Below, one piece after another: positions 1,182 to 34,167 of a stretch of DNA of 64,000 nt. The notes beneath the pieces are model-generated. The model saw only the letters and a list, made by a program, of their open reading frames with translations. It did not search any database and had not been told where the DNA came from. A program made the position numbers and the translations under genes. The stretch comes from a virus (lineage: Duplodnaviria; Heunggongvirae; Uroviricota; Caudoviricetes): the IMG/VR virus record IMGVR_UViG_3300032280_000361; one strand, given 5' to 3'. Numbering within the stretch: position 1 is the first letter of the stretch; every line of letters starts with the position of its first letter.

Positions 1182-1188
1182 ATAAATA
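1182..1188 (-). promoter_or_regulatory. Candidate late promoter motif TATTTAT
   Basis: 17 nt upstream of the Ntn hydrolase ATG. Confidence 0.5.
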
Positions 1189-1194
1189 TTAGAA

Positions 1195-5018: not shown

Positions 5019-5025
5019 ATCTCTA

Positions 5026-5032
5026 ATAAATA
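5026..5032 (-). promoter_or_regulatory. Candidate late promoter motif TATTTAT
   Basis: 7 nt upstream of the ATG at 5018. Confidence 0.5.
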
Positions 5033-13539: not shown

Positions 13540-14393
13540 ATTAAAAGGTCACTTATACAAACTCTGTTTTTATCAGAGCCTCTGTTTAAAGAATTATATT
13601 CATCTCCTCCTATACCAAACATTACACAATCCGTTTCTTCTAATCCCATTTCTGTGCACACTTCGGAATACTTCTCCCCAAATGTGTCCCAATTGTAATC
13701 TACTGAAAAGTTATTCATTAATTCTAACCCCAATGCCGCTCCAAATCTGTTTACCATTTGTTGCTCATTAAAAGCAGTTATACCATCATCTAATGTTCTA
13801 TATTCGTTAACCATTCTAACTCCAACTCTCATGTGTTCCATTCCATAAAACGGCTTAGATAAAGAAAAACATATAGATTGAATACATCTATGGTTTAAAT
13901 TAACGTTTATATTCTTTGCCATTGGATAATATGCAAAATCTAATAAGCATGGGATACTATTTTCATCACAATAATTTAAAAATTCTTCCGTTAATAAAGG
14001 ATGCTGTTTTCCGTAATCTGAAAATGGTACACTTAAGATAACCGCATCACCATTCTTAATTTCATCATCTTCTATGAAGGCCCAATTCCAATCATGTCTG
14101 AATGAACACTTATGATAAAAGAATTCTCCTTTAAAGAAACGGAATCTCTTCTTCTTTTGGATTAAATAAAAATGGTCAAATGCTTGTACAGTTCCATGTA
14201 TATAACTAACATCGTGATAAACTTCTAAACCACTCAATTTGTTATATTTACTACTCTTAATCCAACTTACGAAGTTAGATTTAAATTTATCTAAAACCAA
14301 ATCATCATAAATAAGGTCTGTTCTTTTAAAATCAGTAATGAACTTCCTTACTATTGGGTTTGGTATAGGCTTTGCTCCTCTTAAATTCTTCAT
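13536..14393 (-). CDS. PLP-dependent enzyme (fold type I-like)
   Basis: LLDFAYY (PLP Asp), FSLSKPFY..RVG (Schiff-base Lys and Arg). Confidence 0.6.
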   Translation of the reverse strand: MKNLRGAKPIPNPIVRKFITDFKRTDLIYDDLVLDKFKSNFVSWIKSSKYNKLSGLEVYHDVSYIHGTVQAFDHFYLIQKKKRFRFFKGEFFYHKCSFRHDWNWAFIEDDEIKNGDAVILSVPFSDYGKQHPLLTEEFLNYCDENSIPCLLDFAYYPMAKNINVNLNHRCIQSICFSLSKPFYGMEHMRVGVRMVNEYRTLDDGITAFNEQQMVNRFGAALGLELMNNFSVDYNWDTFGEKYSEVCTEMGLEETDCVMFGIGGDEYNSLNRGSDKNRVCISDLLI

Positions 14394-14862
14394 ATAAACC
14401 TGTTATTTGCATTGTATATTTTGGCTCCATCCCCATATTTCCACTAAGGTGAGGTTGTCCATATCTAATTATTTTAAAACTCATTTTTCCCCAATTAACA
14501 TACGGTTCATTATCAATCTCAAAATAATGCCCCATCTTCCATTCTTCCAAAAAAAAGTTTAATCTACATACATCTTCTTTATTACATTTGTTTTTTTCCG
14601 AAAATTTATAAAATGTATCAAAGTGTTCTGGTATCGTTTGACCAGGCATTTGTTTAATAACACTCACCGAATAATCTGAAAATATCTTTTTAGCAAAAGT
14701 ATGGTATTCATCCGGCAACTCAAATGTTTGGTAATACTGAGTGTTTTTATCAGTATATCCCGCATTTATATATCGTATGTTTTGTTCATCATATTCCGAT
14801 GAATTCCCAACACTTACGTTATTAGATATAGTTTCAAATGTTATATTATGTATTGTTAGCAT
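14332..14862 (-). CDS. Putative 2OG-Fe(II) oxygenase / cupin-fold protein
   Basis: PGQTIPEHFD (HxD), QPHLSGNMG..KYTMQITG (distal His). Confidence 0.6.
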   Translation of the reverse strand: MLTIHNITFETISNNVSVGNSSEYDEQNIRYINAGYTDKNTQYYQTFELPDEYHTFAKKIFSDYSVSVIKQMPGQTIPEHFDTFYKFSEKNKCNKEDVCRLNFFLEEWKMGHYFEIDNEPYVNWGKMSFKIIRYGQPHLSGNMGMEPKYTMQITGLYEEFKRSKAYTKPNSKEVHY

Positions 14863-15814
14863 ATCCTAATGGGAATCCGTTTCTAAATTCAGATGTCATT
14901 CTAGGTATAAGTACTTGATAGGTTTTAATCAACTCTTCGATACCATCATCTAAACTATACTTAGGTTTCCAATCTGTTTTCTCTATCTTTTCATTCGATA
15001 CTATATAATCTCTCTTATCAGGGTCTTCATAGAAATCCGAATAAGTGATTGCAAAATCTGGAATATATTCTTGTATCTTTTCTAATAATTCTTGCTTACT
15101 TAAATTTGCATCACTCAATCCTACATTATACACATTATGTTTCATCGTTTCATAGTTATGTAATCCATGATAGAATACCCTACTAACATCTTGTATATGA
15201 ATGAAGTTTCTTTTAAAATGTCTTTCGAACACCACAATATATTTGTCGGTTAATGCTTTATAAACAAATTCGTTTACTAATAAATCCGTTCTCATTCTTA
15301 AAGATGAACCAAATACGGTTGCTAATCTAAAACAAACCGCAGAAGTTGATTCCATTAATAACTTCTCCGCTGCCACTTTACTTTCCCCATAAACTGATAT
15401 TGGATTAAGAGGTGATTCTTCTGTACAAAACTTACCATCTTCCCCTACACCATATCCACTATTTGTATTAGGATATAATATTATTTGTTGGTCAGATACT
15501 ACCTTTACAATATTATCAATTTGGTTGTAGTTTATTTCCCATGCCAACTTAGGGTCTTTAGCACAAGCAGGAAATCCTACTATTGCAGCTAATGGTATTA
15601 CAACATCATGTGTACCCACTAGCTTCGTTAATAATGCCTCATTCCTAACATCACCATAGATGAAGTTATATCGTTTGTTAGCAGTAAATGCTAAGGGTGA
15701 TATTTGATTAAATGATAAGTTATCCAATACGGTAACTTCGTGCCCTAAACTTAAAAAGTTATCGGTAATTACAGAACCCAAATATCCAGCTCCTCCTGTT
15801 ATTAAAATTTTCAT
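14846..15814 (-). CDS. NAD-dependent epimerase/dehydratase (extended SDR)
   Basis: GGAGYLG, canonical YGESK, FRLATVFG, RNFIHIQD. Confidence 0.88.
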   Translation of the reverse strand: MKILITGGAGYLGSVITDNFLSLGHEVTVLDNLSFNQISPLAFTANKRYNFIYGDVRNEALLTKLVGTHDVVIPLAAIVGFPACAKDPKLAWEINYNQIDNIVKVVSDQQIILYPNTNSGYGVGEDGKFCTEESPLNPISVYGESKVAAEKLLMESTSAVCFRLATVFGSSLRMRTDLLVNEFVYKALTDKYIVVFERHFKRNFIHIQDVSRVFYHGLHNYETMKHNVYNVGLSDANLSKQELLEKIQEYIPDFAITYSDFYEDPDKRDYIVSNEKIEKTDWKPKYSLDDGIEELIKTYQVLIPRMTSEFRNGFPLGYANNT

Positions 15815-16548
15815 TCTCCTTTTATTTTATCTAAAATTCTGTTTTGTATATCATTTACATTATAATCTTGATATAAGAATCCATGATTCCCATTACCACT
15901 ATAATCCCAAACCTTAAATCTGTTAATCTTATCTTTTAGGAATCTATATCTTGCCAAAGTAAATCTTCTAGTTATTTCACTATTGAACAAATCCATTTCT
16001 TCCTTTGATAATGCCTTTTCCATAATAACCACATCATCGATATTACCTTTGTACCACCAACTATATTGTTTCAAATGGTCTTCGATGTAATGGGGTGCAC
16101 CGGCTCCTATATAGAATGGAGTATTATCATAATTTATAACCTCTGTTTTAAACTTATGTTCTCTATCAACTCCATTAACTCTAATTCTAAAAATTTTGTT
16201 AGTGTAATCAACACTATAGAATACTTCATTCCATTCTCTATTAAAATCATACGGGTCGGAAAAAGAAATATTCTCCTTATCTAATACACCGGTTAGCCAT
16301 AATTGATTTGATATTACAAATAAATCATCTTGTTTATTTATAAAACATCCACTATGAAGACCTGATTTTGAGAATAAAGCATATACCTCATTACCCTTTT
16401 CTTCTATCTTAGGAGTTCTAAACTTAGCATAGACCGTAAAATCATGCTGAAAGAATGTTTTAAAGTTTGGTTTCTTAGAAGTATTGAATGATGAATTCTC
16501 CCAAACTTTATAACTCAAATCTTTATCGAAATTTACATAGTTTATCAT
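15811..16548 (-). CDS. Stand-alone LamG/concanavalin-A-like domain protein
   Basis: FTVYAKF, W..V.YSVD..IRVNG, FYIG, YKGNIDDVVIMEKALS, DYSGNGNHG. Confidence 0.75.
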   Translation of the reverse strand: MINYVNFDKDLSYKVWENSSFNTSKKPNFKTFFQHDFTVYAKFRTPKIEEKGNEVYALFSKSGLHSGCFINKQDDLFVISNQLWLTGVLDKENISFSDPYDFNREWNEVFYSVDYTNKIFRIRVNGVDREHKFKTEVINYDNTPFYIGAGAPHYIEDHLKQYSWWYKGNIDDVVIMEKALSKEEMDLFNSEITRRFTLARYRFLKDKINRFKVWDYSGNGNHGFLYQDYNVNDIQNRILDKIKGE

Positions 16549-17933
16549 TATCTAAGGTTTTTACATAAGTTCCAAAATTCTTCTAACTCTGGAAATGTTT
16601 TTAAGAAATCAGTTCCTCTTCTTCTATCATGCTCAGTAAAGAACCTAAAGAAATCTTTTCTATCTCTCTTTAATGAATGTTCTTCTTTTGGTGCAGTTAC
16701 TACATCATAGATTCTTCTTAATTTATGAATCTCCACATCGGTATATCCTATTGGATTTTGCGTTCCTAATGTTTCATAGAAATCCATTAATTGTGCTTGC
16801 TCATAAACTTCTTTGTGCCAATCATCTGTTATAATGTTTGCCGCCTGATGGTTTGGATGTCTTAAATAAGAACTATCCAATCCAATTGGGTAGAACCAAT
16901 ATCTATCTGTGTTAGTAAATTGTTGTTTTAATTTATACACATCTTCTATCAATCCTTTATATGAAGGGATACTTAAAACATTATAAGTTCCCATAATAGA
17001 AATAGTAAGTTTAGGAATCTCTTCTAATAACTCAGCACATCTATCATACCATTGATTATAATCAAATCCATTTCTAATATATTCCGATTGTTTACCTTTA
17101 CCATCACAAGATGTAAATAAGACAAACTCTCTAACTAATCCTTCTCCACTAATTCTTTTAATCTTTTCCTTTGCCATTTGATATAACTTATCAGGTGCAC
17201 CTAAGTTAGAATTGATTGCCAATTTTAACTTTGGGTTAGGATTATCAATTACATAATCAAATACCTTAAAAGTATCTTTGTGTAAAAGGGGTTCACCTCC
17301 AGTAATTCTAAAGTTTAGAAGGTCTTTATATAAATCAGGCCACCACTTCCAAAATGCTTCTACATATGGATTTTGGTCAGCTTGTTTAAATGGTTGCTTA
17401 CCATCTCTGATTAATTGGTCTAAACTATTATGTCGAGTTGAAGTTGGATACGCACCAAATTGTTCAATCTCATCCCACCATTGTGTAGAGAATTGTGGAT
17501 AACAATATGAACACTTAAAGTTACATACATTTGAGAACGATACCTCAACGTATGAAGGGTTCACATCCTCTAAGTAAGAACTATTCTTAATCTCTTCATA
17601 ATAAGGTAATGCCCACTCTTCCGCAGATTTAAAAGTTCTATCTGAAAACTCATTTGAGCTATCTTCAACTTTCCAACAATAATCACATTCATTTGGCTTA
17701 ATACCTTGTAACATTTCTCTTCTCAATTCCTTTTTGTATTTGGTATTGTGAAGTGCAGATGGGTTACCTTCTAATTCTTCAGGTACAATTTTGTGTAATC
17801 CAGGATGGTGACAAGAGTGATTCTGCCCTATATGTAAATGTAGGGTAACTTGTTTCCACTTAGCTAAACAAAATCCTTGTCCAACTGAATTTAGTTTTTT
17901 CCTTATATCGGAATATCTCTCTATATTATCCAT
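16548..17933 (-). CDS. Radical SAM protein with N-terminal twitch/SPASM-like domain; paralog 2
   Basis: CNFKCSYC, ITGGEP, N-terminal FCLAKW..SCHHP..CDYCW. Confidence 0.9.
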   Translation of the reverse strand: MDNIERYSDIRKKLNSVGQGFCLAKWKQVTLHLHIGQNHSCHHPGLHKIVPEELEGNPSALHNTKYKKELRREMLQGIKPNECDYCWKVEDSSNEFSDRTFKSAEEWALPYYEEIKNSSYLEDVNPSYVEVSFSNVCNFKCSYCYPQFSTQWWDEIEQFGAYPTSTRHNSLDQLIRDGKQPFKQADQNPYVEAFWKWWPDLYKDLLNFRITGGEPLLHKDTFKVFDYVIDNPNPKLKLAINSNLGAPDKLYQMAKEKIKRISGEGLVREFVLFTSCDGKGKQSEYIRNGFDYNQWYDRCAELLEEIPKLTISIMGTYNVLSIPSYKGLIEDVYKLKQQFTNTDRYWFYPIGLDSSYLRHPNHQAANIITDDWHKEVYEQAQLMDFYETLGTQNPIGYTDVEIHKLRRIYDVVTAPKEEHSLKRDRKDFFRFFTEHDRRRGTDFLKTFPELEEFWNLCKNLR

Positions 17934-18594
17934 ATTTATTTGGTCTGGCTTTCGAAACGAAATCCATTATTTTATCGTGTTTAAATTTAACCGGCTCAGA
18001 TATTAATCCATGATTACCATTTCCACTATTATCAAATATCTTAAAGTTAGTTTTTGCATCCATATCCAAAGAAGTATAAATTCCTTCTTCTTCTAATACA
18101 ACATCTCTCTTTAAATTAAATAAAATTTCATGTTGTTCTAACGGTCTATCGTAAATAACTAATCTACTTAATTCACCTTCTAATATATTTTCATCGGTTG
18201 TCTTTTCGTGAATATTATCAGCTAAGAATGTAAAGTAGTTATTCTCATCTACTACCTTTGGGTAATCAGGTTTGAAATCAAAACTAACTACCTTATCTCC
18301 ATTGAAGTAAGTAAACTTATGTCTTTTATAATCTATATTGATAAAGAAATCAAATTCATTACCGATATCATCTACAATAAAAGAATGATACGTTCCCAAA
18401 TCCTGAAATTGGAAATGTAATCTATCTTCTGATATAATAAGTGTTTCGGTTGATAGATTTCTTCTAAACAAATACCCCACCTTTTTAGTACAATTATGTG
18501 TACCTGTAAATCTAATAGAATATCCTGCGACTAAGTCTGTAAACTTTTTGGAATTGGTTTTGTTATTAGATTCGTTTTGGATTGTGAATATCAT
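17926..18594 (-). CDS. Stand-alone LamG/concanavalin-A-like domain protein (degenerate)
   Basis: LEGELSRLVIYDRPL, DNSGNGNHG; homologous to 15811-16548. Confidence 0.65.
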   Translation of the reverse strand: MIFTIQNESNNKTNSKKFTDLVAGYSIRFTGTHNCTKKVGYLFRRNLSTETLIISEDRLHFQFQDLGTYHSFIVDDIGNEFDFFINIDYKRHKFTYFNGDKVVSFDFKPDYPKVVDENNYFTFLADNIHEKTTDENILEGELSRLVIYDRPLEQHEILFNLKRDVVLEEEGIYTSLDMDAKTNFKIFDNSGNGNHGLISEPVKFKHDKIMDFVSKARPNKYG

Positions 18595-19985
18595 ACTTTT
18601 CCTTTTCTACATTTTTTATATAATTCGTCAAACTCAGGAAATACTTCCAAAAAGTTTGTTCCTCTTCTCATATCATGATGTCTTACAAAGATAAAGAAAT
18701 CTTTTCGATTTTTCAAGAAAGTTGAGTCATCATCGTGGTTTTTCATCCATTCCGCAATTCTCTTAACTTTTGTAATTTCAATATCGGTAAATCCATAACC
18801 ATCTCCACCCACTCTTACTTGCTCATAGAAATCCATAAGTTGAGCCTGTGAGTTTACTTCATCAATCCACTCCTTATCTAATATCTTAACACTCTGATGC
18901 GGAGGCCATCTTAAGTATGAACTATCTAATATAACCGAACTACCATAATATCTTTCTGCGCTATGATACTTCTTTTTTAATTCATATACATCTTTAATCA
19001 ATCCTTTATACGAAGGTACTGATAAAGCGTTATATGTACTCATTATAATAATAGTAAGTTTAGGATTCTCCGTTAATAAAATGTTTATTCTTTCAATAAA
19101 TAAATCATAGTTAAATCCATGTCTTATATAATTTGCCTGCTCGCCATATGCATCGCAAGATGTAAATAGAATAAATTCATTAACTCTTTCCTCATTCATT
19201 AATTTAGTAATCTTCTCTCTGAACTCATTGAATATCTTTTCAGGAGCATTTAAGTTAGTATTAATGGAAAGGTTTAGTTTTCTATTTGGATTAGGTTCAC
19301 TATTAATGAAATCTAATACATCAAATGTATCCTTTGCTAATAATGGCTCTCCACCTGTAATTCTGAATGTGTGTAAATCCTTATACAAATCCGGCCACCA
19401 TTTCCAAAACGCATCAACGTATGGATTCTTTTTATTATGTGGAATCGGCATTTGGTCGGTACTCTTCAAATAATCTAAGTTGTTAAAATTAGTTGAAGTA
19501 GGATATGAACCATGTTGTTGAATTTCGTCCATCCATTGAGATGAAAATGCAGGTCCACAATATGAACATTTAAAGTTACATACATTTGAGAACGATACTT
19601 CTACATACTTTGGGTTAATATCTTTTTCACCTTTTGTTTTCAATACCTCATCGAAATACTGCATTGACCAGGGTTCTGTAGATTTATATACTCTATCCGA
19701 AAACTCATTTGAATTATCTTCTATATTCCAACAATAATCACACTCTTTAGGTCGTAACCCTTCCATCATTTCTCTTCTTCTATTCTTCTTATAGTTTGTA
19801 TTATGAAGAGCAGATGGATTCTGTGCAACTTCTAATTCAGAAATCTTATGAGTCACCGGATGATGACACGAATGGTTGTGACCCGTTTGGAGTTGAAGTG
19901 TAACCTGCGTCCACTTAGCTAAACAAAATCCTTTTCCAACTTTGTCTAACTTCTCTTTTGTTTTTTCGAAATGTTCGTTTAGCAT
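18591..19985 (-). CDS. Radical SAM protein with N-terminal twitch/SPASM-like domain; paralog 1
   Basis: CNFKCSYC, ITGGEP, FCLAKW..SCHHP..CDYCW. Confidence 0.9.
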   Translation of the reverse strand: MLNEHFEKTKEKLDKVGKGFCLAKWTQVTLQLQTGHNHSCHHPVTHKISELEVAQNPSALHNTNYKKNRRREMMEGLRPKECDYCWNIEDNSNEFSDRVYKSTEPWSMQYFDEVLKTKGEKDINPKYVEVSFSNVCNFKCSYCGPAFSSQWMDEIQQHGSYPTSTNFNNLDYLKSTDQMPIPHNKKNPYVDAFWKWWPDLYKDLHTFRITGGEPLLAKDTFDVLDFINSEPNPNRKLNLSINTNLNAPEKIFNEFREKITKLMNEERVNEFILFTSCDAYGEQANYIRHGFNYDLFIERINILLTENPKLTIIIMSTYNALSVPSYKGLIKDVYELKKKYHSAERYYGSSVILDSSYLRWPPHQSVKILDKEWIDEVNSQAQLMDFYEQVRVGGDGYGFTDIEITKVKRIAEWMKNHDDDSTFLKNRKDFFIFVRHHDMRRGTNFLEVFPEFDELYKKCRKGKV

Positions 19986-21421
19986 TTACAATTTATTAAT
20001 ACTGAATTATTACCAATGTCTTCTATATCCAATAGTTCGTATTTCAAACTACTCATCCCATCATTCTGCCAATTATATTTTCCTTGCTGCATCTCTAACA
20101 CATATCTCTTCTCATTTCTTGCAGTTGTAGCCCCCTTCTTCCATTTACCATTTACTAATCCTTCCGTTTCATGTGGTAAACATTCAAACTTACCATTTCT
20201 TCTATGAGGTATAACCGTTGATGGTATTTCCATTTTCTCTTTGGTAAAAGTAACATTATGTAGTTTACCATTGTTACCATTTCCCGTTTTATCTTCAACC
20301 ATCTCATCGATGAAAGAATCAAAATCATAATGAAGTTGTAAACCATCTTCTTCTAAATGAAATGGAATATCTGCTACCTCACCATCTGTCATACATCTAT
20401 CATACATTCTAACCTCTGCTATTTCTCCTTTAAAGAACTTATTAGGTAATGTACCATTAATAGAAGGTGATGTTCCCATATAAAATCCTTCCGTTCCATA
20501 TCTCTTTAAATCACCACTATATTCCATTGGAGAGGTTACACCTGTTCCGAATCTAGCATCGGTTTCTCTTCCGTTCAAATAGAAGTGAATCTTTTTATTA
20601 TAAGCATCCACTTTCAAAGTTACCCATGTCCATAAATTCTCATACCTCTTCATCCACATATATTGCATCTCCTTCTCACTATTCCATAACATCGAAGTAA
20701 AAGCTCTACTATTGTTATATGATAATCCCCAATCATATCCAGGTCTTCTTAAGATAGGATATTCCCAAAATCTTCTATTCTCATCTCCAATTAGGTAGAT
20801 AGGAATCTTTTCTTCCTGTTGATGTGCCTTTACCAATACTGAAATAGTATGAGAACGATTACACATAAATCTGATAGAACGAGATTGCGGTGTTTCTATA
20901 TAGGATTTAATTCCATCAAAATTAGCTACACTAAATTCATTCGTTGGTTTGATATATGTTTGGTCAGCCATTCCATTTAATGCACATCTCCAAAACAAAT
21001 CATCATCTTCCATACCCCAATCCCAATAATCATTTGAGTAGCCATTTGTTTTATAAACTTGCTCTTTCGTAAACAATACAGCACCCCCAAAATACTCCTC
21101 ATATTTGAGGTTATAATTTGTTTGAGATATTCTTACAGCCAAATGTTTTGGGTTCTCAGGATTGTAACTATAATCACACGAATCATCTTCTGGTATCATA
21201 TCAATATCATGCCATACGATATAATCACATCCATCCTTAAATGCAACATCCGCTGCAATGTTTTTCATCTTACCTCTATTAAAAAGTAAGTTATCACATT
21301 GATGTGCAAAATATATCTTATGCTCAATACCTCTCTCTTCCAAAAATTTATGAACTCTCGGTGAGAACTGAGCTAAATGTTCTTCTCTGTTTCTATATGG
21401 TACACATACTCCTAACTTCAT
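19979..21421 (-). CDS. GT7 (beta-1,4-galactosyltransferase-family) glycosyltransferase with inserted LamG domain; paralog A
   Basis: VPYRNR, FNRG, HDIDM (DxD), YFGG, WDWGMEDDDL; LamG about aa 163-392; GT7 C-terminus GKFECLPH..NDGMSSLKY. Confidence 0.85.
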   Translation of the reverse strand: MKLGVCVPYRNREEHLAQFSPRVHKFLEERGIEHKIYFAHQCDNLLFNRGKMKNIAADVAFKDGCDYIVWHDIDMIPEDDSCDYSYNPENPKHLAVRISQTNYNLKYEEYFGGAVLFTKEQVYKTNGYSNDYWDWGMEDDDLFWRCALNGMADQTYIKPTNEFSVANFDGIKSYIETPQSRSIRFMCNRSHTISVLVKAHQQEEKIPIYLIGDENRRFWEYPILRRPGYDWGLSYNNSRAFTSMLWNSEKEMQYMWMKRYENLWTWVTLKVDAYNKKIHFYLNGRETDARFGTGVTSPMEYSGDLKRYGTEGFYMGTSPSINGTLPNKFFKGEIAEVRMYDRCMTDGEVADIPFHLEEDGLQLHYDFDSFIDEMVEDKTGNGNNGKLHNVTFTKEKMEIPSTVIPHRRNGKFECLPHETEGLVNGKWKKGATTARNEKRYVLEMQQGKYNWQNDGMSSLKYELLDIEDIGNNSVLINCKC

Positions 21422-22854
21422 AACTCTACTGAAATCATTTTAGCTTTATCAGATATTTCTTTTTCTTGTACCTTTTTATATCTTAATGTATTCAATCCTT
21501 CAATCGAATAGAATAACACATCATCTTTAATTGAATTGAATCTTAATTGATTCTTTCTTGTCTCTTCCCAAACCCATCTGTTTCCCTCTACACTATTGGA
21601 TGAATGTTTAAGTGTTTTGAATTTACAATCCTTTTTAGTTGGAATAGTAACCTCTACCATAAACTTACTATTCATCAAAGTGTTAGCCTGGCAATTAATA
21701 ATCTCTGCATCAAAGTTGTTACCCGATATATCAATCAATTTATCTTTTCTATAGTGTCTGAAATCATAATATGTTTTCAAACTCTTAGATGATTTATACT
21801 TACCAAAATTATTCAATAGAGATTTCTTAGCTGAATCTTTATATATCTGATTGATTTCAGGCAATGTTATTGCTTTATCAAATACTGCAAACTCAGATAT
21901 CAATCCTTTGAAATAATAATTCTCATAATTCTTAGATGGGTTAGCAACTCCTAAATAAAAATCCGTTACATTGTAATCATATAAATCTTCTACAAATTCT
22001 TCTCCCACTAATTTACCATTAATATATAACTCAATACTCTTACTACGATAGTTTCTTTTGATAACTGCATGCACCCACATCTCTGGAGTAATATCGGATG
22101 TTATACTTCTACTCTTCTCTTCCTTATCCCATATATCCAATTTGTATCTATTGAAACTATTGTACGATAATGAGAAGTTAAATCCAGGTATTGAGAAGAT
22201 AGTAAATTCATCATATTCTCTATTTGAGTTATTAACTAAATCATCAGCTTTAAACTTAATAGAGATACTGAAATCATCATTCAATATTTTTTTGAATTGA
22301 GGAAATGGTATGCTAACAAATGAATCAATTCCATTAAAATAAAAATAATTCAATACAAAGTTTTCATCCTCTATACCAAATACTTTTTTATCTAATGTTA
22401 AATTACAACTTTCACATCTCTTTAGGAGGTCATCATCCTCAAATCCCCATCCCCAATATTCGTTAGAGTAACCATTGATAATTTTAAAATCTAACTTACT
22501 CAATATAGTAACACCTCCGAAGTAATTGTAAAAACTTTCTTCTCCGTTAAGTGTATTAGCTAAGTGAGTTGGTACATCACAATACGAATAATCCGCATCA
22601 ATCGGTAACATATCCACATCATGAAAACAATAATAATCAAAATCAGGTCCGCTTTCTTTGTAACCAACATTTAATAGCTTACCTCTATTAAAAGGTTTAT
22701 CATCTTTTTGTTCAATGACAAAAACCTTGTAATCAACTTTAGTTCCTAAATATTCTTCGATATATGGAATAAAGATGTTAAGGTGAGATTCCCTATTTCT
22801 ATAAGGAACTATTATTGCTAATTTCTTAGCTGATGTTTTACTGCGGTCTTTCAT
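21418..22854 (-). CDS. GT7 glycosyltransferase with inserted LamG domain; paralog B
   Basis: VPYRNR, FNRG, HDVDM, YFGG, WGWGFEDDDL; LamG core FKGLISEFAVFD; C-terminal EGLNTLRY. Confidence 0.85.
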   Translation of the reverse strand: MKDRSKTSAKKLAIIVPYRNRESHLNIFIPYIEEYLGTKVDYKVFVIEQKDDKPFNRGKLLNVGYKESGPDFDYYCFHDVDMLPIDADYSYCDVPTHLANTLNGEESFYNYFGGVTILSKLDFKIINGYSNEYWGWGFEDDDLLKRCESCNLTLDKKVFGIEDENFVLNYFYFNGIDSFVSIPFPQFKKILNDDFSISIKFKADDLVNNSNREYDEFTIFSIPGFNFSLSYNSFNRYKLDIWDKEEKSRSITSDITPEMWVHAVIKRNYRSKSIELYINGKLVGEEFVEDLYDYNVTDFYLGVANPSKNYENYYFKGLISEFAVFDKAITLPEINQIYKDSAKKSLLNNFGKYKSSKSLKTYYDFRHYRKDKLIDISGNNFDAEIINCQANTLMNSKFMVEVTIPTKKDCKFKTLKHSSNSVEGNRWVWEETRKNQLRFNSIKDDVLFYSIEGLNTLRYKKVQEKEISDKAKMISVEL

Positions 22855-23071
22855 CGTTAGGTCTTTCTGAATCTCTCATTGGTCGAGATACACTTCCTAA
22901 GTTTTTAGCTTTTAAAATTGTGTGGAATTCATGTAAGTACCATTCAACTCTTGTTCCCCAAGCTGATTTATCGATTTCAAACATCCAATCGTTTAAATCT
23001 CTGAAAGATGAAGCAATATCTTCTAATGCTCTTACCTTTCTTTCTTCTAAGTTTTTTTCGTCTACTGCCAT
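22838..23071 (-). CDS. Small Trp-rich hypothetical protein; tandem paralog 1
   Basis: About half of a 58-aa core is identical to 23086-23319, which supports real coding. Confidence 0.8.
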   Translation of the reverse strand: MAVDEKNLEERKVRALEDIASSFRDLNDWMFEIDKSAWGTRVEWYLHEFHTILKAKNLGSVSRPMRDSERPNDERPQ

Positions 23072-23085
23072 AACTTAATGTTTAA

Positions 23086-23319
23086 TTATTGAGGTCTTTC
23101 AGTTCCCTTTTCAGGTCTTCCTGTGTTACCAATAGTTTTCGCTTTTGCAATCATATAGAATTCATTTAAATACCATTCTAATCTTTCCGACCATCCTTTG
23201 GTATCTAATTCATACATCCAATCTTGAATGTTTTCCAATGAACCTGCAATCTTTTCAAAAGCCTTAACTGCTCTCTCTTCGATATTATCGATTTGTTCTG
23301 GTTTTTTAGATGTTGCCAT
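23086..23319 (-). CDS. Small Trp-rich hypothetical protein; tandem paralog 2
   Basis: EER.V.A.E.IA.S..DWM.E.D..W..R.EWYL.EF..KAK..G..RP..ERPQ shared with 22838-23071. Confidence 0.8.
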   Translation of the reverse strand: MATSKKPEQIDNIEERAVKAFEKIAGSLENIQDWMYELDTKGWSERLEWYLNEFYMIAKAKTIGNTGRPEKGTERPQ

Positions 23320-23320
23320 T

Positions 23321-23569
23321 TTATTTATTTTTTAATTTATTTTCTGTTTTGTGTTGGAAAAATGCAGGTGGGAAAGGAGTTGCCTGTCTAGCTGAATAAT
23401 ACTCTCTTAATAATTCTAATGCAGAGAATACTATTGGTTGAACGTATGAGAAGGTTTGAAGTGTTTTATTCTTTTCAAAAACTTCTAATGCTTCTGCTAC
23501 TCTTTCCGCTTTACTAACAAACTCTTCGTTGTTAATAAGTTTTGTTACTATAGAACTATCTTTATCCAT
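23321..23569 (-). CDS. Small hypothetical protein
   Basis: Fills the gap in the co-directional operon with coupled ends; no recognised motif. Confidence 0.65.
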   Translation of the reverse strand: MDKDSSIVTKLINNEEFVSKAERVAEALEVFEKNKTLQTFSYVQPIVFSALELLREYYSARQATPFPPAFFQHKTENKLKNK

Positions 23570-25035
23570 ATTGCTTTTTCATTTATTTGTTCTTCTGATA
23601 AAATCTTATAATTTAGGTAATTCAATCCTACCTCTTTCGTATCCAATCTGTTTGTTAAAACTTCGTTGAAATATATTTGAGAGTTCTGTACAATATCCGG
23701 GTCCCAACTATAGAACTTCTCCGTTATTTGGTCATCACCCTCGTGAATTAATGATTGATACTTTCCTAATATTCTAGATGGTACTGATAATCTGGATGTT
23801 TTTGGTATAGTATCCTTCTTAAGATACTCCGAATAGTTTCCGAATTCAGGTCCATATATTTTAACGTGATTAAGAGTTAATGAATCATCTAAAATAAAAT
23901 CTCTATATGTTTTATCAAATTTAATATTCAATACAGGCTCTAAATCCGTATTCTTTTTCTCATCATTATATCCTTCTAAATAAAGATTATCAATTTCTCT
24001 TTGTTCTAATACATAATCAAATAACAATACATTAGCCATTTTACCATTGTATCTAGCAGTATTCAAACTACTACATCCTAAGAATAGATGTTCGTTTGTA
24101 TAATCATATATAGGTGTTACAATGTAAGGTTGTTGGTCTCCAGTGTAACTTATCTTAACTGAGTTTAAGTACATCTCAATTAATTCTTTATTATAATCAA
24201 CAACAAACACTATATGATTCCAAACATCTGGTTCATACTTCTTATATGCAAAACAATACTGCTTATCATTATCATAAACATTCACTCTTATTGTTCCATC
24301 TTTCTGTAATGATATACCGGTATTAAATCCTTTCCACGCAATTAAGTATTCCTCTTCTTCTACCATATCAGAATTGAACCATAATGCAGCAGTAAAACTA
24401 TCTCTCGTAATATCTCTTAATTGAGAATTAGGAAATATCTTTAGGTACAAATCGTTACCACTAAAGTCCGCGTAGTTTACTTGCTCAATATATTTCTTAT
24501 CTGTTATCTTAATTTTTTCAAATTCATAATACGAATCTATGCGAGGAAAAACCGTCTCTTCATCTAATTCAATTTCGTTTATTCTACATCTGTGGAGTAA
24601 ATCTAAATCAGCGAATCCCCAACCCCAATACTCATTTGAAAATCCATTTATCTTTTCGAAATCTTCTTTACTAAACATAACTACCCCACCCATATATTCT
24701 AAGTAAGGTAACTTAAATTTATGAGCAGATACTCTAGTTGCCATATGAACGGGATATCCACCAATGTGAATGTAATTGTAATCACAATCATCACTTACAG
24801 GTAACATATCAATGTCGTGGAAACAGAAATAATCAAATTTATCTTTCAATAAAGAGAATCCTATATTACAGATTTTACCATAGTTAAATGGTTTATCATC
24901 GGTTTGCTCAACAATAATAATTTCATACTCTACATCTTTGTTCTTAAAGAACTCAATCATGTGAGGTACGAAAGTATCCAACTGCTCTCGCCTATCCCTA
25001 TAGGGTACTATTATCGCTATCTTTTTTCCGTACAT
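23548..25035 (-). CDS. GT7 glycosyltransferase with inserted LamG domain; paralog C
   Basis: VPYRDR, FNYG, HDIDM, YMGG, WGWGFADLDL; LamG core YNGKMANVLLFD; C-terminal GKYQSLIH..GLNYLNY. Confidence 0.82.
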   Translation of the reverse strand: MYGKKIAIIVPYRDRREQLDTFVPHMIEFFKNKDVEYEIIIVEQTDDKPFNYGKICNIGFSLLKDKFDYFCFHDIDMLPVSDDCDYNYIHIGGYPVHMATRVSAHKFKLPYLEYMGGVVMFSKEDFEKINGFSNEYWGWGFADLDLLHRCRINEIELDEETVFPRIDSYYEFEKIKITDKKYIEQVNYADFSGNDLYLKIFPNSQLRDITRDSFTAALWFNSDMVEEEEYLIAWKGFNTGISLQKDGTIRVNVYDNDKQYCFAYKKYEPDVWNHIVFVVDYNKELIEMYLNSVKISYTGDQQPYIVTPIYDYTNEHLFLGCSSLNTARYNGKMANVLLFDYVLEQREIDNLYLEGYNDEKKNTDLEPVLNIKFDKTYRDFILDDSLTLNHVKIYGPEFGNYSEYLKKDTIPKTSRLSVPSRILGKYQSLIHEGDDQITEKFYSWDPDIVQNSQIYFNEVLTNRLDTKEVGLNYLNYKILSEEQINEKAIWIKIVL

Positions 25036-25037
25036 TA

Positions 25038-25892
25038 TTATATTGAAACTATGTGTTTAGATAGTTTATTCCAATTACTGAAAGATACGAAGGATTTTTC
25101 AGATTTCCAAGTGAATTCTTTGTATTTTTCCAAATCTATACAATACCCATACTCCTCTATACCATTCAACATTATCTGATATTCTCTTGAGTAAGAATAA
25201 TCTTGTCCAATTTTAGCTACTTCTTTTAATCTATCTACTACACTTTTATCCCATTTGAAATGGTGAACTTGTACAAATCCCTTATTAATTGGATATCTCA
25301 ATGGGTGATTCCAACCTTGCCATCTCCAAGTTGATTGCCCTTCTATTTGAGCATAATGTTGACCGGATGTTACTTCAATTCTACCTTTACATAGTGTAAC
25401 TTTATTTGGGCAAGCTCCACTCATTGGATATCTAAAAAATGAACTGATAGGAAATACTTCCCATAAATCCGTATTCTCATCTACGAAAGGAAAACTACCA
25501 TCTTCACCAATCTTATCTATAAATCCACCGGTTACAAATTCCCACCCATTATCTTCACACTCTTCTATTATAGAATTTACATCATCCCAATACAAATGTA
25601 ATTCATCATCATCCGCTACAATCCACCAATCATTAGGATATAAGTTTTTAATTTCATTATAGAAATGTGTTACTGAAATCCAATTGAATGCATCCGATTC
25701 TCTTTCGTGCACAATACAACCAAACTCTTCTGCAATTTCGTTAACTCTATCAAATGATTCTTTATTGTTTACATCAAGAGTTCTATAATTAACCAAATGA
25801 ATTTCACTCACCATATCCTTATAATGAGATAGCATCTGTCGTAGAGTATTTGTTCTATGACCAGTAACGGTTATTAATCGAGGTTTTTTCAT
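25038..25892 (-). CDS. GT-A fold glycosyltransferase (GT2-like)
   Basis: WWIVADDDELH (DxD), PNKV..GQH, VHHFKW. Confidence 0.65.
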   Translation of the reverse strand: MKKPRLITVTGHRTNTLRQMLSHYKDMVSEIHLVNYRTLDVNNKESFDRVNEIAEEFGCIVHERESDAFNWISVTHFYNEIKNLYPNDWWIVADDDELHLYWDDVNSIIEECEDNGWEFVTGGFIDKIGEDGSFPFVDENTDLWEVFPISSFFRYPMSGACPNKVTLCKGRIEVTSGQHYAQIEGQSTWRWQGWNHPLRYPINKGFVQVHHFKWDKSVVDRLKEVAKIGQDYSYSREYQIMLNGIEEYGYCIDLEKYKEFTWKSEKSFVSFSNWNKLSKHIVSI

Positions 25893-26647
25893 TTTCTTCT
25901 TATGAGTGTTAATCCAGTAGATGATGGTTTATTTTTTACAATACCAAAGTTGAATAGATTGAATATTTCCCAATCTTTATTATCTTCCAATTCTTTTACA
26001 AATTGAATAGGGCCACTCCAATCATCGTGGTCACCTCTATCTTTTATTTCTTTTGTTACAATATAGCTATCAGCATATTTTGAATCAGTATCATGTATTG
26101 AGATGATACCATTTTCTGATAATATTTGTGAGTATAATTCAAAATCTTGTTTAACATTTTCATAACTATGTCCTGCATCTATGTGTAAGTAATCAATTTT
26201 AATATCGTTTAATACAAAATAATTGTGAAATGCCTCTTCTGTAGTTGTACTAATAATTCTAGGATGAAATGTTCTTCTATAAAATGATTCTTCTGCAAAC
26301 CAATCTACATTACCACCGATACCATTCATTGCATCAACTACATAAGTTGTTCCAATATCTCCCCAATTGTAATCAGCATTTCCTTCAAAGATTCCTTGCG
26401 TGTGTAAATCGTATCTAGATTGTGTCATTAGACGAGGAATGAATCCACCCCCACTTCCTAAACATACACATACTTTGGCTCTCATATATTGTATAATAGA
26501 ATATATGATTAAACCATCGCCTAAGTGTACATCGGTTGCTCCGTGAGACCATCTATAAGGAACAGGATGCTCCTCTTCTTCACCTCTAAAATCAAACTCT
26601 AAATTGTTTGTGAGGTACTTCTTTATGTAGTTTAAATCTTGTAACAT
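25889..26647 (-). CDS. Class I SAM-dependent methyltransferase (Methyltransf_24-like)
   Basis: VCLGSGGGF motif I; IDYLHIDAGHSYENV..GIISIHD. Confidence 0.85.
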   Translation of the reverse strand: MLQDLNYIKKYLTNNLEFDFRGEEEEHPVPYRWSHGATDVHLGDGLIIYSIIQYMRAKVCVCLGSGGGFIPRLMTQSRYDLHTQGIFEGNADYNWGDIGTTYVVDAMNGIGGNVDWFAEESFYRRTFHPRIISTTTEEAFHNYFVLNDIKIDYLHIDAGHSYENVKQDFELYSQILSENGIISIHDTDSKYADSYIVTKEIKDRGDHDDWSGPIQFVKELEDNKDWEIFNLFNFGIVKNKPSSTGLTLIRRK

Positions 26648-26676
26648 CTATTGAATATAACTATTATAATATACTA

Positions 26677-26707
26677 CAAAGATACTAAAAATTTAGCACT
26701 TTTCCAA
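26677..26707 (-). promoter_or_regulatory. Bacteroidota-type housekeeping promoter heading the glycan island
   Basis: Minus strand TTG (26707-26705), 20 nt, TATCTTTG (26684-26677); 29 nt before the methyltransferase ATG. Confidence 0.65.
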
Positions 26708-27677
26708 CTTTATTTTTCCAATTTTCTAAGGATGCAAACCCCTCCATATACTCTCTTAACTTATTGAATTCCAATACTTTAGAGTCATATGTTTCGGTTA
26801 CAATTTCCTTCACAATTTCATCAAAATCTTCCTTAGTTTCTACTCTATATTTGTAATCACATTCTATTCCCCAATCTTTATGAAGGATAGGAAGTTTACC
26901 ATAGTTTACCGCATCAAATACTGAATACCCAAATGGTTCGTTTTTATAAGCCGAATGAAATGTTTGCCAACTCTTATCTATGAACCATTGACGGTGAATA
27001 CTCATATCAAACTCATAAAACTTACATCTCTTAAAATCGTATTGCTCCGATATATTATAATAATCATATTTGTGAGTGAGAACTTTTGCACTATGCCCAC
27101 TTAACCAATGTGGATTCTTTCTACTTTCAAATCGTGCGGCGTATCCAATAGTTTCCGTATCTACATCAACCAATTCTCTATTCTCCGTAAATTTATAATA
27201 GTTTGGTATAGTAATACAATCCCATTCATCTAAAAGTGAAGAATGATTTAATCCTATCCAAATTCTATTCTTACACTTTCTTAATAGAAGATTTTGCCAA
27301 CCCAAATCAATCTTTGTTGGATATAATTTAAAATCAGTTCCAGCTTCTGTTATATCTTTTGCGTATGCCTGAATGAATACCGAATCCCATTTATCTTGAT
27401 ATTCCATAAGATACTCTCTATGTGAATACGGTGGATGTAGAAAGATTATTCTATCACATTTATCCAATGTATCCTCCACTAACTTAGGGTTCTCTAAACG
27501 GAAGATATGGGGTATAGAAATGGATGATTGAATATGCTTAGCAGGTCTCTTATTATCGATTATCAAACATACTTCTTCTTCGATGGTAGGAATGATATGT
27601 TGAATAAAATTATTTACCCATATATCCCCGCCACCGATAATTTGATTACCCGCAGATGTCGTAACAAATACTATCAT
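26685..27677 (-). CDS. GT-B glycosyltransferase (GT4-like)
   Basis: GGGDIWV N-terminal loop, YAARFESRKNP, EPFGYSVFDA..GKLPI. Confidence 0.75.
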   Translation of the reverse strand: MIVFVTTSAGNQIIGGGDIWVNNFIQHIIPTIEEEVCLIIDNKRPAKHIQSSISIPHIFRLENPKLVEDTLDKCDRIIFLHPPYSHREYLMEYQDKWDSVFIQAYAKDITEAGTDFKLYPTKIDLGWQNLLLRKCKNRIWIGLNHSSLLDEWDCITIPNYYKFTENRELVDVDTETIGYAARFESRKNPHWLSGHSAKVLTHKYDYYNISEQYDFKRCKFYEFDMSIHRQWFIDKSWQTFHSAYKNEPFGYSVFDAVNYGKLPILHKDWGIECDYKYRVETKEDFDEIVKEIVTETYDSKVLEFNKLREYMEGFASLENWKNKVGKVLNF

Positions 27678-27683
27678 AACTTT

Positions 27684-27941
27684 TTAATAAGGAGATTCCC
27701 CTAACAATTCCACATTCCAAATTTGTTTCAATTCATCTAATGTAGAAATGTTACTAATATCTATATCAGTTATATCTCTTAATGCTTGTTTTTTAGCGCC
27801 AATTTCAGCCGATAGAGTGGTATTACCCACTTCCAACGCTTTCATAAATTGTACATCCAAATCTTTGAAAACCAATTCTCTTTTTTCTCTAATTTTACTT
27901 TTATGAATTTCCAGTGCTTTATTTAAATCAATTCTTATCAT
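27684..27941 (-). CDS. Putative tail-fibre assembly chaperone
   Basis: KIREKR..LDVQFMKALE..KKQALRDIT pattern typical of chaperones encoded downstream of fibres. Confidence 0.6.
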   Translation of the reverse strand: MIRIDLNKALEIHKSKIREKRELVFKDLDVQFMKALEVGNTTLSAEIGAKKQALRDITDIDISNISTLDELKQIWNVELLGESPY

Positions 27942-27945
27942 AATA

Positions 27946-28227
27946 TTAATAGTTTTCAGTATGTTGTGCTTCTTCCATTGCTATTCTAAATTTTTCATTT
28001 ATACCATAATCAGTTGGGTTAGACCAATCAGGGTCATATGCGGTATGAAATACTTTATCATAATATTCATATTCAACCAATATAAATGGCCACCCTTCTG
28101 GTACAGTTTGTTTTGCTATTGATGTAGCTGTTTTAAAATCATTCGCCAGAATACTCGCAGAGCCTAACATTATTTTTGTTCCTAAACTTTGTTTACGAGA
28201 AGGAAATATACTTACATATCTTGTCAT
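27946..28227 (-). CDS. Putative tail-fibre assembly/accessory protein
   Basis: IAKQTVPEGWPFILV..DW resembles the 'KDVPxGxP' fibre-assembly proteins; directly follows the fibre gene. Confidence 0.45.
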   Translation of the reverse strand: MTRYVSIFPSRKQSLGTKIMLGSASILANDFKTATSIAKQTVPEGWPFILVEYEYYDKVFHTAYDPDWSNPTDYGINEKFRIAMEEAQHTENY

Positions 28228-28240
28228 ATTTTTATTTTTT

Positions 28241-31200
28241 TTATTTGTAAACTAATAAATTAATTCTACTACCACTATTATCTTCATTAGTTAATTCTAT
28301 TTTAAAACTAGTGTTATATGTATCAAACACTCTTACTATTTGTGGTACTGGACCAGTTGCTGTTCCATTTGCCGCAACTACTACTCCATAGAAACCCGCA
28401 GCTGCAGTTACATTAGGATATGTTGATGAATCCTGTAATGCTTCTACAAAGAAAACTTGAAATGTATTTGTTGTTACATAAGTTATTTGTTCTATATTAA
28501 AAGAATAACCAATTACCCATACATCGGAATAAACAGATGTACAGTTTGTACTTGCATCCGGTTCAAACATTGCATATGCTCTTAACATTTGGAAAGCTCT
28601 GTTATATCCTCCAAAAAAGTGCGATGTCATAAAGTTACCACCCGCAGAACGGTTCGAACGAGGATATAATGCATTATTAATATAAATCCTTTGCATTGCA
28701 TTATGCCACTCAATTGCATTATGATTTAATAATAGGAATGTTCCGCCAATGTGTCCAACTGTTCTTCTTTTTTGGAATGAATTGTTTGTATTTGAAGCAT
28801 TGGTTGGAAAATTAGTAGTATCTAGTGAATCTAAAAAATCCGGTCTAGTTAAAAAATATCTATCGGTATCCTGCCCAACGTTAATTCCAACCTGATTAAT
28901 CGCTGTAGATGCTACTGATGCAGCATAATTTATATTTATATTAGGCATATAATAATTAACAGTGAAATAGTTATCATATGCTATATTATAAACTATATAT
29001 TGAACGGTAACAGTATATGCTTGCCCTGCTACCATATTTACTCCAGACATATATAATACTATATTAGCAGGTGGAGATGCGGGGCTGATTTGTTCATAAA
29101 AGTTACCGGCAAAATCCGCATCAAATACAGGAGTATTTACATACTCGGCTCCACCAAAACCACTATACACACTAGTACCCGTACTATCTTTTACATAAAG
29201 TCTCATATCAACATAAGGACCATTAGTCTTTGTTCCACTTATCCAAGTAGTTTTTCTTAAAGAAGTTACAGGAATACTTAATGTTAATTCAAATGCTGCA
29301 GTTAATGGTGATATTATCACGTTATCAACATTCCATGTAGGTGCAAATGGCCAATCACCTGCAACATAAGTTGTTCCACTGGTGGGGTCACCCGTAGCAG
29401 TTCCATACGGTACTTGTAAATAACCATTCGAACCTTGTCCTGATAATACACCATTTTGGAATGTAGCTACGCCGGCTGCAAATCCCGTAATTGCTAGTGT
29501 ACCGTTAAATGCGTTAGCGGGGTCTGCCGTTGATGTAGTACTATTATCTAAAAGAACTTTTGCAACACCATTAGTATCTTTTAATTTAATTGTACCATCA
29601 TTAGCTAAAACGGTTCTACCACTATTAGCGGTTAGTGTAGTTGGATTAATTGTCCATCCACCAATTGTTCCTGCTTGATTCGCGGTTAAAGTTGTAGCGG
29701 TCAATGCACCACTCAATGTTACGTTTGATGCATTTATATTACCACTTGTATCCAATGAAAAGTTACCCGCTGCAATTGAAAGGTTCTCCCCATCCCATAA
29801 AATATACTTACTTCCAGCAGTATTTTTTACAGATATTTTTGAAGTAGATGCATCAGTTCCTAAGAATATACCCTTTCCTGCTGCAGCATATCCTTTTGTT
29901 GCACCTTGTCCAATTGAAATATATGGTGAACCATCTCCTCCCCATATTGTTATATTCGCCGCATTTCCTGCTGCATTAGTACCAACATTAATTGTGTTTT
30001 GTACATAAGATTCTTCTGCAATTAAGAGTCCCGTTGATATTGCACTAAATGATGTGAACTCTTCCCAATTCGAATCACCTCCATTTGTCGGAGTAGATGT
30101 TGCACCAATCGTTGTTAAATCTGCACCTCTAAACGCATAGAATTTTCCACTATGTTTAACTGCATCTTTTTTAGTAGCATTATTATTTAATACAAATCCA
30201 GGGTCGGCCGCTTTCTTAGTTGCATAATCACCTATGAATAAAAGACCAGGCCCTTGTCTACCTTCTTTTGATACTGATACTTTATGAGTTCTGGTTTCAC
30301 TTCCTGCTACACCTTCTGAATTTACATAACTAATTGTAACCGATACGGTAATTCCCGCATCTGTTGTGGGTGTGTTTGGTGTAATAGTTCCGTTAGCATT
30401 ATTAGTTCCACCGGTAATAGCAGAAACATAATAAGTACTTGCTCCTCCACCTGTTGAATATGAATATGAAGTTGTTTCCTTAACAGTTATACTAAAGTTA
30501 GAAGGAGCTGCATATGTCGATGATGATGCAACGTTCTGTGAATCCGCTGAGAAACTTACTAATGTTGTAGGTGGTGCGTTTTTAATTTTTGATAATGAAA
30601 CGGTATCAGTTACACTTCTACTAGTTGATTCACTATCAGTTATCGTAGCACTTATAGAAACTATCGTACTATCAGTTCCATTTGCTAAAGTTCTACCACT
30701 TAATGTAATCGTTCCTGTTCCAGCAGTTGTTACGATTGTTGCGATATCACCTGATGTTGCAGTTAAGGCAGTAATTGTTTTTGTTGTAGTAGCTCCGTTA
30801 TATGTTTCACTAACTGTCACAACGGGATTACTAAACCCTCCGATTTGAACACCGGTTGATTTAGCAGTTACACTTTGTGATTTATTTGTTATTTCTATTT
30901 TTAATACGGGTGCCGCTTTTCTTGATTTAGAAATTGTTGCAGTTCCTACCACAGTTCTAACTACTCCCTCCGAATCAGTTACAACTCCGGTAATGGTTAA
31001 TACCGAACTATCTGTTCCATTTGCTAAAGCCGCCAATGTAATAGTTGTAGCATTTGTTGCACTAAATCCAGTATATGAATTTGTAGCAGTAACGGTTGCC
31101 GCAGAATTTAAGTTTCTGTCCGTAGTAGTTCCCTGATATGTATCCTTAACACTTAAAGTAATATTACCAAATGCAGTTATCTGTTCTCCGGTTGATTTTG

Positions 31201-34081: not shown

Positions 34082-34100
34082 TCTGTATAATTTCTTATAG

Positions 34101-34107
34101 ATAAATA
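34101..34107 (-). promoter_or_regulatory. Candidate late promoter motif TATTTAT
   Basis: 19 nt upstream of the tail fibre ATG. Confidence 0.55.
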
Positions 34108-34118
34108 CCTTTTCGTTG

Positions 34119-34134
34119 TATTTATTTATAAATA
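34119..34134. promoter_or_regulatory. Overlapping TATTTAT motifs on both strands of the fibre/RHH divergent gap
   Basis: TATTTATTTATAAATA: plus-strand TATTTAT at 34119 and 34123, minus-strand copy at 34128-34134. Confidence 0.45.
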
Positions 34135-34136
34135 TA

Positions 34137-34167
34137 CTAAAGAAATCTAAAGAATGATAAAGAAATC
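34137..34167 (+). repeat. 10-bp-period direct repeats over the RHH start codon (candidate operator)
   Basis: CTAAAGAAAT / CTAAAGAATG / ATAAAGAAAT at 34137, 34147 and 34157. Confidence 0.5.

Follow-up and report, generated by a model that had tools for sequence, protein, structure and literature searches.

The GT7 family is among the best understood families of glycosyltransferases, and its acceptor specificity is re-programmed by alpha-lactalbumin and by a mobile loop. Lactose synthase and lectin-domain glycosyltransferases have an extra module beside the acceptor site that changes or narrows the choice of acceptor. In lactose synthase (beta4GalT1 with alpha-lactalbumin; 1NF5, 4L41) the specificity module is a separate subunit, and in ppGalNAc-T with its ricin-type lectin, or in B4GALNT3/4 with PA14, the added modules are terminal. 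Here we analyse three paralogous genes, A, B and C, in IMG/VR virus record IMGVR_UViG_3300032280_000361, a stretch of 64,000 nucleotides from a virus of Caudoviricetes (the whole of this stretch is called the window below). Their products are predicted to be GT7-type enzymes with a LamG domain inserted inside the catalytic fold, so that, by analogy to the systems above, the putative specificity module would be internal, spliced into the chain, and of a different, LamG/pentraxin fold.

The nearest described relatives are animal beta-1,4-galactosyltransferases 1 and 7 (CAZy GT7; 1TVY, 1NF5, 1O0R, 4IRQ, 3LW6), to which the phage catalytic core is 30-36% identical. Both groups have the DxD motif, YFGG, a WGWGxEDDD-type loop, the metal His and a C-terminal hairpin. 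Unlike the animal enzymes, the phage ones are cytoplasmic, have no transmembrane segment or stem, and carry a LamG domain of 245-265 amino acids in place of a connector of about 10 residues. Also related are minimal, insert-less GT7 proteins of 215-250 amino acids from bacteria and giant viruses (P0212, P0215 and P0256; a Megaviridae example is annotated 'Glycosyltransferase group 7-like protein'), which are 35-39% identical to A and share with it the truncated N-terminus and the core motifs, but in which the helix runs straight to the strand G.Y.SLPH.

According to our analysis A, B and C, which are mutually about 30% identical, all match three Pfam families: Glyco_transf_7N (E 2e-18 to 2e-24; 66.8-86.4 bits against a cut-off of 27), Glyco_transf_7C (E 1e-17 to 1e-19; 63-70.8 bits against a cut-off of 23) and Laminin_G_3 (E 2e-10 to 3e-16, above the curated cut-off). 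Since each family exceeds its curated cut-off in all three proteins, the composition is far beyond chance. The first 45 or so positions of the 7N profile are absent from all three, and the 7C match in A and B covers only profile positions 1-63 of 78, ending just ahead of the LamG match. Comparison with PDB sequences gives the same split picture: in phmmer residues 2-152 of A match human and bovine B4GALT1 (E 6e-31), with a further weak stretch at residues 447-467 on its C-terminal hairpin, and a B-clade profile finds two stretches on B4GALT1, 3-156 and 431-474. The proteins are soluble and have no signal peptide or membrane anchor. The order of GT7 N-part, LamG and GT7 C-part in these three open reading frames had been proposed in a sequence-only reading of the DNA and agrees with all three Pfam matches; the insert of A, placed there at residues 163-392 (230 amino acids), was located correctly and proved slightly wider, residues 157-402 (nucleotides 20216-20953, about 245 amino acids). 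B also has an insert of about 245 amino acids, and C one of about 265.

An AlphaFold2 model of A, built from an alignment of 70 sequences, reached a predicted local distance difference score (pLDDT) of 95.4 and a predicted template modelling score (pTM) of 0.91. In this model the LamG domain is inserted inside one contiguous GT7 GT-A fold and is packed rigidly on the catalytic domain. Foldseek, which penalises long gaps, matches only the first 151 residues of the model to beta4GalT1/7 (root-mean-square deviation 1.1-1.9 Å); in a single superposition on beta4GalT the C-terminal part of the model falls in as well, with about 60 post-insert residues predicted in canonical places, so that the GT-A fold is superposable up to and including the His strand, the helix and the hairpin at the C-terminus. 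The insert itself is a jelly-roll beta-sandwich of LamG/pentraxin type, with the LamG domain of PAPP-A as the best structural match, and the picture of a LamG looped out of a contiguous GT-A fold thus holds in the model. Sequence identity of the insert to known domains of this fold (the N-terminal LamG of PAPP-A, BACOVA_03559 (4DQA), SAP/CRP/PTX3) is 10-21%, and in contrast to them it is looped out of an enzyme.

The insert-less natural homologues need about 10 residues to pass from the helix after WGWGxEDDD (...DDLxxRC) to the His strand G.Y.SLPH, which suggests that the phage enzymes have swapped this connector for 245-265 residues. The ranges of alignment and superposition put the junction about 10 residues ahead of the His strand, at about bovine residues 330-340. 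It presumably lies just before His347 of the bovine enzyme and the long flexible loop of beta4GalT1; the earlier placement of the junction before the flexible acceptor-binding loop is borne out by these ranges and by the insert-less homologues. Two other arrangements were considered and rejected. A circular permutation of the insert was suggested by a canonical-looking strand 'LHYDFD...D.TGNGNNG' at its end, but when the insert is aligned by structure to pentraxins and 4dqa the order is sequential along its full length. MAFFT paired the G.Y.SLPH strand of the insert-less proteins with the first LamG strand of A (FDGIKSYIETP), which we judge to be a misalignment because the His strand GKFECLPH follows the insert and superposes with B4GalT1.

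The catalytic signature is well kept in A and B and partly eroded in C. The DxD motif reads HDIDM in A and C and HDVDM in B, and HD[IV]DM is found in 79/80 A and 69/72 B orthologues. The acceptor-loop motif is WDWGMEDDD in A (and in 79/80 of its orthologues), WGWGFEDDD in B (WGWG[FY]ED.D in B orthologues) and a degenerate WGWGFADLD in C; we take the Trp, Glu and catalytic Asp of WGWGxEDDD to be bovine W314, E317 and D318. Nearly all A and B orthologues have xYFGG, and paralogue C has YMGG; the Tyr before FGG limits the donor of beta4GalT1 to Gal rather than GalNAc. The three tails carry the strands GKFECLPH, CKFKTLKH and GKYQSLIH (pattern G.[FY]..L.H) and the hairpin motif DG[LM]xxLxY, which in A is DGMSSLKY. 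His417 (A and B) or His431 (C), the putative metal ligand, does not vary between the three paralogues or within the B clade, and P405, H417 and W427 in A numbering are invariant across A, B and C. Taken together, A and B retain the DxD, the acceptor-loop Trp, Glu and Asp, the His and the Tyr before FGG; C retains the DxD, the His and the central Asp, and the Glu of EDDD is gone. Of the motifs first attributed to all three enzymes alike (VPYR, DxD, GG, WGWGxEDDD, metal His, GLxxLxY), the DxD and the His hold throughout, and a uniform WGWGxEDDD or GLxxLxY does not.

The maximum-likelihood tree of the N-part separates A, B and C as old paralogue clades (supports 98/93, 89/87 and 93/84, respectively). 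The backbone of the tree is not resolved (37/59), and it does not show a single origin of the insert; the rows within the clades that seem to lack an insert come from truncated genes. One insertion followed by duplications is the history favoured by the insertion point, which is identical, and by the motifs that the inserts share. Pairwise identity differs by region: 46-62% (N core), 23-37% (insert) and 23-44% (C core). Divergence is thus much faster in the insert and the acceptor-side C part than in the N part on the donor side, as would be expected if functional differences reside on the acceptor side.

As to its spread, the split architecture is abundant in uncultured aquatic phages and yet uncharacterised in the databases and literature that were searched. 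A word-indexed search returned 1878 relatives, and the 120 of them that were listed are all unnamed or 'hypothetical protein', many on contigs of 100-265 kb. An exhaustive search gave about 70 full-length clusters at 50% identity together with many insert-less GT7 proteins. In ESM Atlas the three Pfam domains occur together in at least 5 clusters, of 50-73 members each and all labelled Uroviricota, and the AlphaFold DB clusters contain one full-length cluster, A0A2E0BNI5, which is named by domain alone. A search with A by tblastn against 50,697 GenBank phage records, a set from which the window's own record or close ones may be missing, found no match; PHROGs gave marginal matches to A only, with E above 5e-4; NCBIfam had no match for A, BFVD had no full-length match, and full-text literature on GT7 with LamG, or on Glyco_transf_7C with Laminin_G_3 or phage, returned nothing. 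The sequence-only reading knew of no characterised enzyme of this kind, and indeed none came up in PDB, PHROGs, NCBIfam, BFVD or the full-text literature; in metagenomes, on the other hand, the architecture is common. GT7 is mainly eukaryotic as far as characterised members go, but many bacterial, giant-virus and phage homologues exist.

The split architecture is not confined to phages. A search of 185,579 prokaryote species genomes gave only about 11 loci with it, all in metagenome-assembled genomes, and several of these are the phage cassette binned under Pelagibacterales, Flavobacteri- or Anaeromicropila labels. In genomes labelled as Spirochaete, however, GT7-LamG genes occur in bacterial-type polysaccharide loci (L096:532-12637 and L093:1373-12303): in one locus a single GT7-LamG gene is accompanied by an ABC-transporter ATPase, GT4, GT2, a radical SAM enzyme and an FkbM methyltransferase, and in the other two GT7-LamG genes stand with a polysaccharide deacetylase, a carbamoyltransferase and a fusion of FkbM with radical SAM. 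The phage surroundings repeat those enzyme classes, with a methyltransferase, radical SAM enzymes, a Nol-like carbamoyltransferase and three short-chain dehydrogenase/reductase (SDR) proteins. This recurrent association with glycan-tailoring enzymes suggests that the acceptor of the GT7-LamG enzymes is a sugar chain, and the product a heavily tailored glycan, rather than DNA.

In the phages the three genes belong to a conserved cassette (Table 1). Its order is a giant protein of 1200-1900 amino acids, a 330-amino-acid protein, a methyltransferase, a 284-amino-acid protein, C, one or two 77-amino-acid proteins, B, A, one or more N-twitch radical SAM enzymes and SDR sugar-nucleotide enzymes. Counts of loci here and in Table 1 refer to the IMG/VR loci that have an A orthologue. 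B, A and a radical SAM homologue, the latter often in several copies, are present in 80/80; C is optional (present in 33/80, absent from 44/80), and the order C-small-B-A recurs in a lineage only 31% identical. A homologue of the 77-amino-acid family lies directly upstream of B in 76/80 loci; its conserved core is LEERKVKALEKIA..W..E...W..R..WYL.EF, the C-terminal tails are variable, and the ERPQ end is not kept. A predicted complex of B with the upstream 77-amino-acid protein, made from paired alignments, scored 0.00, which gives no verdict for or against an interaction. The free LamG-like proteins are similar to the insert of A in its C-terminal half (E 4e-7 and 2e-4) and are found in only 8-20 of 80 related loci. 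In the window five LamG modules stand within 9 kb.

Table 1. Positions of the split glycosyltransferase genes, their parts and their neighbours in the window (aa, amino acids)
Feature	Position	Strand	Description and basis
Paralogue A (P0001)	19979-21421	minus	480 aa; GT7-type GT-A glycosyltransferase with internal LamG
A, N-terminal catalytic part	20954-21421	minus	aa 1-156; VPYR, HDIDM (DxD), YFGG, WDWGMEDDD, helix 138-148
A, inserted LamG/pentraxin-like jelly roll	20216-20953	minus	aa about 157-402
A, C-terminal catalytic part	19982-20215	minus	aa 403-480; GKFECLPH strand (His417), helix 431-444, DGMSSLKY hairpin
Paralogue B (P0002)	21418-22854	minus	478 aa; A-like architecture; Pfam and alignments
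B insert	about 21649-22383	minus	aa about 158-402; by alignment with A
Paralogue C (P0003)	23548-25035	minus	495 aa; A-like architecture; degenerate acceptor-loop motif; His431
C insert	about 23782-24576	minus	aa about 154-418
77-aa helical Trp-rich protein P0275	22838-23071	minus	paralogue of P0274; overlaps start of B
77-aa helical Trp-rich protein P0274	23086-23319	minus	between C and B; translation
82-aa open reading frame	23321-23569		between C and B
284-aa GT-A-like protein	25038-25892	minus	language-model similarity only; in 75/80 loci
Methyltransf_24 methyltransferase	25889-26647	minus	Pfam match; in 70/80 loci
330-aa GT-B-like protein	26685-27677	minus	language-model similarity only; in 62/80 loci
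N-twitch radical SAM enzymes	18591-19985 and 16548-17933	minus	NF033640, E 1e-97
Free LamG-like proteins	17926-18594 and 15811-16548	minus	one after each radical SAM enzyme

Upstream of the cassette, at 28241-34081, the window encodes a protein of 1946 amino acids with 23% Ser+Thr, a proportion which reaches 47% in one stretch of 60 residues. It has no Pfam or PHROG match, and its homologues of 1100-1800 amino acids precede the glycosyltransferase cassette in many loci. It is a candidate for a fibre and for a target of glycosylation.

From the information discussed above we propose, with somewhat better than even confidence in the reading as a whole, that A, B and C are stepwise glycan-building GT7 enzymes in which LamG serves as an acceptor-recognition module. 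By analogy to the animal family they would be inverting, Mn2+-dependent transferases, passing a hexose from a uridine diphosphate (UDP) sugar to a sugar acceptor, the three paralogues acting at successive or different steps of one glycan. The glycan would be built and tailored by the products of the whole cassette, that is, the GT-B-like protein, the methyltransferase, the GT-A-like protein, the GT7 enzymes C, B and A, the radical SAM enzymes with the free LamG proteins, the SDRs and the carbamoyltransferase. The LamG insert on the acceptor side would then be a built-in recognition module holding the growing glycan or its carrier, similar in function to the ppGalNAc-transferase lectin domain or to alpha-lactalbumin acting on beta4GalT1; the faster divergence of the insert and the C part, the rigid packing in the model and the related free LamG proteins beside radical SAM enzymes give indirect support to such a role. 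The final target would most probably be a glycan on a virion protein, for instance the Ser/Thr-rich 1946-amino-acid protein, whose composition and place ahead of the cassette, shared by its homologues, fit virion glycosylation; the main alternative target would be a lipid-linked surface polysaccharide of the host.

Several points weigh against this reading. The proposed donor, acceptor and linkage are carried over from animal GT7 enzymes at a core identity of about 31-36%. None of the insert residues is invariant across all three clades, and a common ligand site is not evident. In the C clade the consensus is YWGxGFxDLD, and the acceptor-loop Trp, the second Asp of DxD and the His are each conserved in less than 90%, so some C copies may be inactive, or C may be a specialised copy. 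The 284- and 330-amino-acid proteins are leads only as glycosyltransferases, through their language-model resemblance. Finally, we saw no flippase or export gene in the window, nor an ABC transporter or ligase, and this absence tells also against the idea that the phage remodels the host surface.

The sequence-only reading left it open whether the insert selects the acceptor or docks the enzyme on a partner, and docking deserves its own consideration. The insert might be a protein-protein module tethering GT7 to a virion fibre or capsid substrate or to a multi-enzyme complex that would include the pairs of radical SAM enzyme and free LamG protein and the 77-amino-acid helical protein, since LamG/pentraxin folds often bind proteins and the best match, the LamG domain of PAPP-A, belongs to a protein-recognising protease; the presence of five LamG modules in 9 kb, two of them as separate proteins beside radical SAM enzymes, and of a conserved small helical protein translationally coupled to B in 76/80 loci, goes in the same direction. 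We find docking rather doubtful nevertheless, as many LamG_3/ConA-like domains of microbial enzymes (sialidases, BACOVA_03559) bind carbohydrate, and the bacterial members stand single in polysaccharide loci with neither the small protein nor free LamG, which a glycan acceptor fits better. Those same bacterial contexts, of ABC-transporter type, together with the role proposed for glycosyltransferases in the host-recognition cluster of pelagimyophages (PMC7029224), keep alive the alternative that the enzymes, cytoplasmic and soluble like bacterial O-antigen glycosyltransferases, remodel the host O-antigen or capsule on its lipid carrier during infection (superinfection exclusion, anti-re-adsorption), with LamG binding the host glycan and no virion glycosylation at all. 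Apart from the missing export genes, this would have to explain why a giant gene, Ser/Thr-rich and fibre-like, strictly accompanies the cassette, which lies among structural genes, and a slow change of the surface would be of little gain to a large lytic phage; we consider it unlikely, though worth keeping in view.

Two further explanations seem to us very improbable. Phage glycosyltransferases are classically DNA-modifying, the 330-amino-acid neighbour is similar by language model to clusters that include DNA alpha-glucosyltransferase, and a gene of the thymidylate synthase family lies 13 kb away, so one may think of glycosylation of hypermodified DNA bases, like that by T4 alpha-/beta-glucosyltransferases and the arabinosyl/glycan systems. 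That gene, however, scores above the NCBIfam equivalog cut-offs as a canonical thymidylate synthase, not a hydroxymethylase, neither a hydroxymethylase nor a base-modifying kinase was found in the window, and GT7 enzymes use sugar acceptors, in accord with the bacterial homologues in polysaccharide loci. Hardly more credible is that the three proteins have no catalytic role and are parts of the virion, structural or receptor-binding, that bind glycans and have a leftover GT7-like fold: LamG domains are common in phage structural proteins and the motifs of C are eroded, but the DxD, acceptor loop and His are almost invariant in A and B over 80 loci at 40-60% identity, and the genes around them are for sugar-nucleotide and tailoring enzymes.

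Within the favoured reading of stepwise glycan building, the resemblance of the free LamG proteins to the insert suggests that LamG may address the same substrate in cis and in trans. A bolder extension, which we regard as speculative and rather improbable, is that LamG is a reusable 'address' module, acting in cis as an alpha-lactalbumin-like switch in GT7 and in trans bringing radical SAM enzymes to one fibre glycan. If so, a swapped or diverged LamG would re-programme which sugar is extended, a modular code not known from cellular glycosyltransferases.

An abundant lineage with a lectin-like domain right before the mobile loop offers in any case a natural experiment on hard-wired acceptor choice. 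The cassette marks a conserved and unstudied glycan pathway of large aquatic phages, comprising glycosyltransferases, a methyltransferase, N-twitch radical SAM enzymes and a carbamoyltransferase; its product may decorate virions or alter host surfaces and may thereby influence host range and the way in which phage and host recognise each other in the sea. Being small and soluble, the enzymes could also become tools for glyco-engineering if their specificities prove distinct. A glycosyltransferase-rich host-recognition cluster is described in marine pelagimyophages and cyanomyophages (PMC7029224), and our case is similar in that a large aquatic myovirus carries glycosyltransferase and radical SAM cassettes beside fibre-like genes; virion glycosylation in mycobacteriophages is reported by Freeman et al. 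2023 (cited in PMC12619734). In PMC7029224, and in the mycobacteriophage work as it is cited in PMC12619734, GT7 or LamG-split enzymes are not described. New here are the three-clade structure, the optional C with its motif erosion, the divergence by region and the members in bacterial polysaccharide loci.

Some further features of the window can be added. A scan of 15000-34800 for promoters and terminators gave sites no more numerous than in shuffles, and tRNA genes, sought as a clue to the host, were not found. Sugar chemistry extends well beyond the cassette: positions 1-15000 hold three SDR epimerase/dehydratases, an E1-alpha-like thiamine diphosphate (ThDP) fragment and a WbuC-like cupin, the Nol/NodU-like carbamoyltransferase lies at 61652-63343, and the extended neighbourhood also includes a cytidylyltransferase-containing protein of 1108 amino acids and an Asp/Asn beta-hydroxylase-like protein. 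The thymidylate synthase (37957-39003) has 348 amino acids against profiles of 264-318 positions, with an extra segment of about 30-80 residues. With a guanine-cytosine content of 31% and all genes on one strand, the window belongs to a large aquatic myovirus, whose nearest cultured relative is the Microcystis phage Mel-JY01, about 40% identical in the baseplate and SbcCD-like proteins.

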